Shown: piece by piece, positions 57,738 to 58,046 of the stretch | Position numbering within the stretch: position 1 is the stretch's first letter | Layout: each line of letters starts with the position of its first letter | Source of the DNA: Escherichia phage vB_Eco-B1.1 | Direction: 5' to 3' (one strand) | DNA length: 64,000 nt | Sequence record: ON871820 | Notes under the pieces: generated by a model | What the model saw: only the letters and a program-made list of their open reading frames with translations | Told to the model about the DNA's origin: nothing | Databases searched by the model: none | Made by a program: the position numbers and the translations under genes

Positions 57738-58046
57738 ATGAAAACATTTAAAGAATTTATCAATGAAGCGGCTGCGCCAAAGACATTCGTTATTAATACT
57801 CAGACGAGTCTTGACGATGAGTATGCAGAGGCAATTCTGAAGTCACTTGCTAAGAACGGCGTTGAAGTAATCGCCTCGGACTTTAAGAAAGGGGCTTCCG
57901 AGATGTTTATTTCTATAACTAAAGGATCTAAGGCTAAAATCAAATCATCATTCGGAGTTGCTCGTACCGATCAAATCGACAATCATGACTTTAAACAAAC
58001 TGGCGTTAAACGGCAGAACACAATTGCATCACGCGGAATAAAATAG
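57738..58046 (+). CDS. internal protein (IP)-like capsid-targeted protein
   Basis: N-terminus MKTFKEFINEA|A resembles the T4 IP capsid targeting sequence with an I-x-E prohead-protease site; sits at the ipI locus between 57B and the tRNAs. Confidence 0.6.
   Translation: MKTFKEFINEAAAPKTFVINTQTSLDDEYAEAILKSLAKNGVEVIASDFKKGASEMFISITKGSKAKIKSSFGVARTDQIDNHDFKQTGVKRQNTIASRGIK

Follow-up and report, generated by a model that had tools for sequence, protein, structure and literature searches.

ip7 in the ipI slot of Escherichia phage vB_Eco-B1.1: identity, locus and predicted route into the capsid

Introduction

Each of the three characterised internal proteins (IPs) of T4 (Ip1, Ip2 and Ip3) inhibits a GmrSD type IV restriction enzyme of its own, although the leader is all that they have in common (Black's work; Silas et al. 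2025, PMC12373910). T4 IPI, whose mature form is deposited as PDB 2JUB, inhibits GmrSD-CT596; Ip3 inhibits GmrSD-ECOR17 and Ip2 inhibits GmrSD-ECOR21/BrxU (PMC12373910). The shared leader is the capsid targeting sequence (CTS), which has affinity for the prohead core: the first 10 residues of IPIII are sufficient for head incorporation, residues 4 and 7 are the main targeting determinants, and residues 8 and 10 are the processing determinants (PMC9026906). IPIII lacking the CTS functions from the host cytoplasm (Srikant et al. 2022).

That the ipI slot can be filled by alternative IP genes has been on record since 1994 (PMC2839356, PMC12373910), and more than 30 IP variants are known. Repoila et al. 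described PeSL-like elements, composed of T4 early promoters and AT-rich stem-loops, around two highly variable IP loci, and these elements may drive IP shuffling (PMC2839356). They resemble the promoter-early stem-loops (PeSLs) of RB49 and phi1, in which repeated units, each made up of a promoter, a hairpin and an RBS, border a non-essential gene; both kinds of unit supply homology for insertion, deletion and replacement. Nevertheless, the IP-locus elements are analogues, not homologues, of the PeSLs, and have T4 early promoters with weaker AT-rich hairpins (PMC2839356). One of the named genes at this locus is ip7 of T2, RB15, RB32 and CC31 (PHROG 2667; GenBank BBC14756.1, CAA84464.1). Here, we analyzed a 64,000-nucleotide stretch of the vB_Eco-B1.1 genome (ON871820), hereafter the window, in which a single IP gene occupies the ipI slot.

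Results

The ORF at 57738-58046 is ip7

The ORF and its parts are as follows.

57738..58046, + strand: ip7 CDS, precursor of the internal head protein Ip7; 102 aa, ATG at 57738, stop codon ending at 58046
57738..57767, + strand: capsid targeting sequence MKTFKEFINE, forming the propeptide; gp21 is predicted to cut behind Glu10 (I-N-E↓A)
57768..58043, + strand: predicted mature Ip7; 92 aa, about 9.9 kDa, pI 9.65

The precursor begins with MKTFKEFINEAAAPK, and a Shine-Dalgarno GGAG lies 6 nt 5' of the ATG. A TTG start at 57726, which the ORF finder offered as an option, was dropped because every homologue starts with MKT. The protein is identical to T2 Ip7 at 101 of 102 residues (99%), with the same length, the same leader and the same locus, and the sole difference is V90, which is an alanine in T2. 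It matches PHROG 2667, "internal head protein" (E=5.2e-41; protein residues 1-102 on profile positions 1-101 of 101), and is similar over its full length to named Ip7 proteins, for which the database names include "Ip7 protein". Searches of Pfam, NCBIfam and PDB sequences with Ip7 gave no significant match. Judged by its sequence, the ORF is ip7, the long-named gene of T2, RB15, RB32 and CC31. A spurious ORF or a chance signal is excluded by the dN/dS values, by the existence of 283 homologous records and by how rare the leader motif is (see below), and plain T4 ipI is excluded as well, since the similarity ends after residues 1-7.

The comparison with T4 IPI separates the leader from the body of the protein. 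The first seven residues of the two precursors are identical (BLASTP), and both propeptides end in I-x-E↓A, although the predicted propeptide of Ip7 has 10 residues against 19 in T4 IPI, for which 2JUB comprises precursor residues 20-95. Between mature Ip7 and T4 IPI, in contrast, BLASTP found no similarity, and hhalign of the family profile aligned 7 columns at a probability of 3%; mature Ip7 does not qualify as a homologue of mature IPI by these comparisons. The first-pass annotation had not recognised the body as T4 IPI, and high identity of the mature regions, which would have made the gene simply ipI, was sought by alignment and not seen. Remote homology to Ip5 and to the Ip9-type proteins was considered and rejected, as the leader alone aligns (10 columns with Ip5 and 13 with the Ip9-type, using the 28-member profile). 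The CTS of T4 IPIII and IPII is closer in length, also having 10 residues followed by Ala, with 7 of 10 positions identical (MKTYQEFIAE vs MKTFKEFINE), whereas the mature sequences are unrelated to that of Ip7. Ip7 is basic like IPIII and IPII and would likewise be classed as a capsid-packaged protein.

The class assigned to this ORF in the first pass was thus the right one, yet the gene is already named ip7 and the polymorphism of the locus has been known since 1994. The gene, its leader, the locus and the shuffling mechanism have all been described before, so that the window adds nothing new on these points, and near-identical ip7 copies are present in public phage genomes. Taken as a whole, the reading of ip7 as an alternative internal-protein gene of the variable T-even ipI locus, together with the packaging mechanism proposed below, appears probable to us.

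The ipI slot and its promoter cassettes

The gene order around ip7 is gene 1 - 57A - 57B - ip7 - trna.4 - trna.2 - 11 tRNAs, with gene 1 encoding the dNMP kinase. The elements relevant to the locus are listed below.

57204-57659, + strand: gene 57B, directly 5' of ip7; Acb1 (Pfam PF23474, E=2.6e-60)
57661..57737, + strand: upstream IP-locus cassette with an early promoter, an overlapping hairpin and the Shine-Dalgarno GGAG
58047..58116, + strand: downstream copy of the cassette before trna.4, with a GTTTAC -35, a 12-bp hairpin over the -10 box and GGAGAATAAAATG
58117-58299: trna.4, downstream of ip7
58302-58589: trna.2, directly after trna.4
58687-59701: 11 tRNA genes (Gln, Leu, Gly, Pro, Ser, Thr, Met, Tyr, Asn, His, Arg)
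56599..56606, + strand: nearest same-strand T4-type late promoter box TATAAATA, an exact match inside gene 1

The arrangement 57B-IP-trna.4 with a flanking promoter cassette is common to T4 ipI and ip7. The first-pass annotation had placed the gene in the ipI slot between 57B and the tRNA array; the slot is indeed that of T4 ipI, although the two small ORFs trna.4 and trna.2 intervene before the tRNAs. It had also called the product a second CTS protein at the ipI locus. The product does bear a CTS, but ip7 is the sole IP gene in the ipI slot of the window, and the other CTS-like ORF, at 60448, lies beyond the tRNA array.

A cassette of ~70-95 nt precedes both ip7 and trna.4, so that ip7 is flanked by copies on both sides. 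Each copy consists of an AT-rich stretch, GTTTAC (-35), an extended -10 under an inverted repeat, and GGAGAATAAAATGAAA. In the upstream copy the promoter scan found a -35 TTTACA at 57673 and an extended -10 TACTAT ending at 57701 (9 of 12 positions matching, with the TG extension), and the hairpin has a folding energy of -18.7 kcal/mol (z = -3.3); the hairpin of the downstream copy has -16.4 kcal/mol (z = -3.2). Two pairs of direct repeats connect the copies, 57689-57712/58076-58099 (96%) and 57728-57743/58107-58122 (100%). Both cassettes align with those before T4 ipI, T4 trna.4, T2 ip5, T2 ip7 and T2 trna.4, and in sequence they match the account of the IP-locus elements given in PMC2839356.

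Packaging needs late expression, which is not obvious from the sequence context of ip7. The late promoter sequence TATAAATA was not found directly 5' of ip7, the nearest one being 1.1 kb upstream, 362 nt into gene 1 and at the same offset in T4 and T2. For this reason we only infer late expression of ip7: 57A, 57B and the IP locus are probably transcribed late from the box in gene 1, the candidate source of late ip7 transcripts, which would have to read through 57A and 57B. The scan of 57550-58700, from upstream of ip7 to beyond it, found no terminator-like site.

Several features of the surroundings were observed in passing. Gene 57B encodes Acb1, the anti-CBASS cyclic-nucleotide phosphodiesterase, and many phage records still call it "RNA ligase" or "hypothetical"; the IP hotspot thus borders on a gene with a known counter-defence function. 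The tRNA region of the window has neither trna.3 nor the segB homing endonuclease of T4, and contains 11 tRNA genes against 8 in T4.

Variation of the slot and spread of the family

The occupancy of the slot varies from phage to phage. The single-gene layout of the window, with ip7 alone, is shared with G8, JoYop, LF73P3 and CC31, whereas the slots of T2 (ip5+ip7), RB32 (ip5+ip9+ip7) and RB15 (ip5+ip9+ip7+ip8) hold one, two and three further IP genes, respectively. In Pu-Krd-SF4 and ECO07P3 an Ip9-type gene accompanies ip7, and in UFV-AREG1 ipI is found together with ip7 and other IPs. In CC31 (L006, 1771-2079), ip7 and the stop codon of 57B overlap (ATGA), and no promoter cassette precedes the gene. 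T4 IPII and IPIII are encoded near gene e, at the second IP locus, and the Ip7 homologues of VR7 and of the Klebsiella phage kv_tblp2 (43-47% identity) are also located there and not beside 57B, in the order e - denV - ip10 - IP - ip7 - vs.8 (VR7, L007 1771-2070; kv_tblp2, L008 1771-2070); the family is thus not tied to one IP locus but moves between the two. The "ip7 protein" of OLB35 (P0014, 77 aa) is a chimera without a CTS, in which the Ip7 core (residues about 29-73) is joined to an Ip9-type C-terminus (…NNIQRFANDKGLRHEPGGYKKYAIYLK), the latter corresponding to the protein that precedes ip7 in Pu-Krd-SF4 (L002:2579-2851). From its sequence, the chimera looks like a product of recombination or deletion within the IP locus.

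A tblastn search with mature Ip7 retrieved 283 phage records at 43-100% identity, from phages of Escherichia, Shigella, Salmonella, Enterobacter, Klebsiella, Citrobacter and Erwinia. Ip7 is among the most widely distributed orphan internal proteins. No cellular homologue was found when 1.84 billion representative proteins were searched with a HMMER profile; only three true representatives of the family were returned, and a fourth match, to the 664-aa repeat protein P0016 (E 6e-7), appears to be an artefact of its repeats and was set aside. The dN/dS of ip7 is 0.05-0.14 against T2, RB15, ECO07P3 and CC31, by which the gene is under strong purifying selection. In CC31, a Karamvirus and thus of another genus, Ip7 is 92% identical with a dS of just 0.33, and this combination suggests a recent transfer of ip7 between genera. 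The family can accordingly be described as phage-restricted, under purifying selection, and apparently passed between genera as well as from one IP locus to the other.

Beyond ip7, the 12-kb stretch at 52000-64000 matches no phage record compared above about 96% identity, and the single-gene near-identities differ by phage (ip7 to T2, SP1 and Pu-Krd-SF5; the 60448 ORF to RB27). On this comparison, vB_Eco-B1.1 is a mosaic Tequatrovirus that is identical to no listed record.

Capsid targeting and predicted processing of Ip7

The first pass had recognized a T4-like CTS with an I-x-E protease site in the ORF, and the detailed comparison confirmed it. The leader is of the ~10-residue type of T4 internal proteins, MKT[Y/F]xEF[I/L]xE, and besides its seven-residue identity with IPI and its 7/10 match to IPIII it places F4 and F7 at the targeting determinants and I8 and E10 at the processing determinants. 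An (L/I)-x-E site, with its determinants at positions 8 and 10, closes the propeptide, and I8-N9-E10, followed by A11, is the single [L/I]-x-E site in the whole protein. M1, E6, F7, I8 and E10 of the leader are invariant across 28 family members. N-termini of the form MK[ST][FY]x.F occur in only two ORFs, those at 57738 and 60448, in the six frames of the window, and the CTS of Ip7 is therefore not a chance resemblance.

The window also encodes the machinery on which such a leader would act.

28111..28749, - strand: gp21 prohead protease (Pfam Peptidase_S77, E=1.5e-111), the predicted remover of the Ip7 propeptide
27271..28080, - strand: gp22 scaffolding core protein (Pfam T4_CASP, E=1.7e-89), to which the CTS is predicted to dock in the prohead core

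The protease is identical to T4 gp21 at 211 of 212 residues (99.5%), and gp23, gp24 and gp20 are encoded in the window as well. Because F4, F7, I8 and E10 are present and gp21, gp22, gp23, gp24 and gp20 are all encoded, we propose the following pathway. During infection, the 102-aa precursor would be expressed from the early-type promoter cassette of ip7 itself or by late read-through from the gene 1 late promoter. The 10-residue CTS would dock the precursor onto the gp22 core of the assembling prohead, where gp21 would cut after Glu10 (I-N-E↓A) to release the 92-residue basic protein. Mature Ip7 would then stay in the head with the DNA and be injected alongside it at the next infection. A literature search that included virion proteomics returned no proof of Ip7 packaging, cleavage or injection, and no relevant main-text match. 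By analogy with the T4 proteins, Ip7 is very probably packaged, cleaved and injected.

Predicted structure of Ip7

The AF2 model, computed with a 28-sequence alignment, has a mean pLDDT of 75.6, with values of 78-93 for residues 11-80 and below 50 for the last 20 residues. The predicted topology is beta1(15-20)-alpha1(27-39)-beta2(43-49)-beta3(55-62)-alpha2(65-69)-beta4(76-80), so that mature Ip7 would consist of a beta-alpha-beta-beta-alpha-beta core (about 14-80) and a disordered basic tail (83-102). This differs from mature IPI, in which helices at the termini flank two beta-sheets (PMC3012670). 2JUB was absent among the best 50 Foldseek PDB matches listed for Ip7, and the prediction does not reproduce the IPI fold; ACT-like folds were among the matches obtained. 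As modelled, the fold appears to be a generic ferredoxin/ACT-like one that says little about function and offers no mechanistic clue. In addition to the leader, the 28-sequence alignment contains invariant residues at K15, L25, D26, I33, V44, K51, K62-G63-S64, K67, V74 and N94, the last of which lies inside a conserved R-x-N-T-[I/L] motif of the C-terminal tail. Mature Ip7 is basic like other IPs, with 15 K+R in 92 residues. The likely mature protein (11-102), the confidently predicted core and the conserved tail motif may be of help in a search for the target.

Candidate host targets of Ip7

Three other members of the class to which Ip7 belongs have proved to be specific anti-restriction proteins. 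That a non-IPI occupant of the slot may act on a different host defence is the standing hypothesis of the field, and by analogy there is about an even chance that Ip7 is a counter-defence factor, supplied ready-made to inhibit a first-response defence of the host. The first-pass annotation had proposed a protection test against GmrSD-type enzymes, part of which is already in print. When ten ip genes including ip4-10 were assayed against active GmrSD variants, no reproducible new inhibition was obtained, either for ip7 or for the others (Silas et al. 2025, PMC12373910), and an apparent ip7/CLS_011 interaction failed in triplicate plaque assays (Supplementary Figure 9 legend, PMC12373910). Moreover, T2, whose Ip7 differs from ours by the one residue, is still restricted by GmrSD-ECOR21 and GmrSD-ECOR17 (PMC12373910). 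The GmrSD hypothesis for Ip7 is weakened by these three observations. It is nonetheless the single most likely target class, though less likely than not, and we tentatively suggest that mature Ip7 inhibits a subtype of the GmrSD family, or of other modification-dependent type IV enzymes, outside the tested panel. All three characterised T-even IPs inhibit distinct GmrSD enzymes and have only the leader in common, Ip7 resides in the same hotspot, and the diversity of GmrSD is very large, 15 groups having been sampled, of which 8 were active (PMC12373910). Against this suggestion stand not only the direct test and the restriction of T2 but also the lack of similarity of Ip7 to mature IPI (PDB 2JUB) in sequence and in fold, as well as the homologues in phages of genera infecting Klebsiella, Enterobacter and Erwinia, which suggest a target that is not necessarily tied to glucosyl-hmC DNA. 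A fast-evolving arms-race inhibitor might also look different from Ip7, with its strong purifying selection and its near-identity across genera.

The same spread of near-identical proteins over phage genera with different hosts would fit a target other than restriction. Mature Ip7 could be an injected inhibitor or decoy of a non-GmrSD defence, or of an early host function conserved across Enterobacterales, with the ACT/ferredoxin-like domain binding a small molecule or a conserved enterobacterial protein and the RxNT[I/L] tail serving as a short linear binding motif. The ACT-like fold matches, the conserved motif within an otherwise disordered tail and the negative GmrSD panel are consistent with such an activity, and the adjacent Acb1 indicates that the neighbourhood is not limited to anti-restriction functions. 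We regard it as rather unlikely; if true, a conserved non-GmrSD target would explain the movement between genera, the purifying selection and the failure in the GmrSD panel. Alternatively, mature Ip7 might have no specific host target and act as a basic, DNA-associated head filler, a charge neutraliser or an aid to packaging or ejection, interchangeable with other IPs. Its pI and its content of basic residues agree with this role, as do the T4 IPs, which are basic, present at ~300 copies each and DNA-binding at low salt (PMC9026906), and the contacts of internal-protein lysines with DNA phosphates (PMC3012670); the one to four different IPs that the slot holds by phage also suggest interchangeability. 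However, a polycation would not require a well-folded conserved core, and the invariant non-basic residues L25, D26, I33, V44, G63, S64 and N94, together with a dN/dS near 0.1, point to a specific structure or interface. In addition, T4 lacking all three IPs grows on standard laboratory strains (PMC9026906), and the IPs studied so far have specific targets (PMC12373910). A role confined to filling the head is accordingly improbable.

A second CTS-like ORF beyond the tRNA array

The other ORF with a CTS-like N-terminus is located past the tRNA array, outside the classical ipI slot.

60448-60909, + strand: CTS-like ORF, 153 aa, N-terminus MKTYAQFLMTE↓AS

An exact late-promoter box TATAAATA lies at 60412-60419, 29 nt 5' of its ATG. 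The putative cleavage context is L-M-T-E (L-x-x-E) and not the canonical L/I-x-E. The protein matches PHROG 2280, "unknown function", and is 100% identical to an ORF of RB27; it occurs in 511 phage records and is "hypothetical protein" or unannotated in every record listed. It may be an unannotated internal protein.
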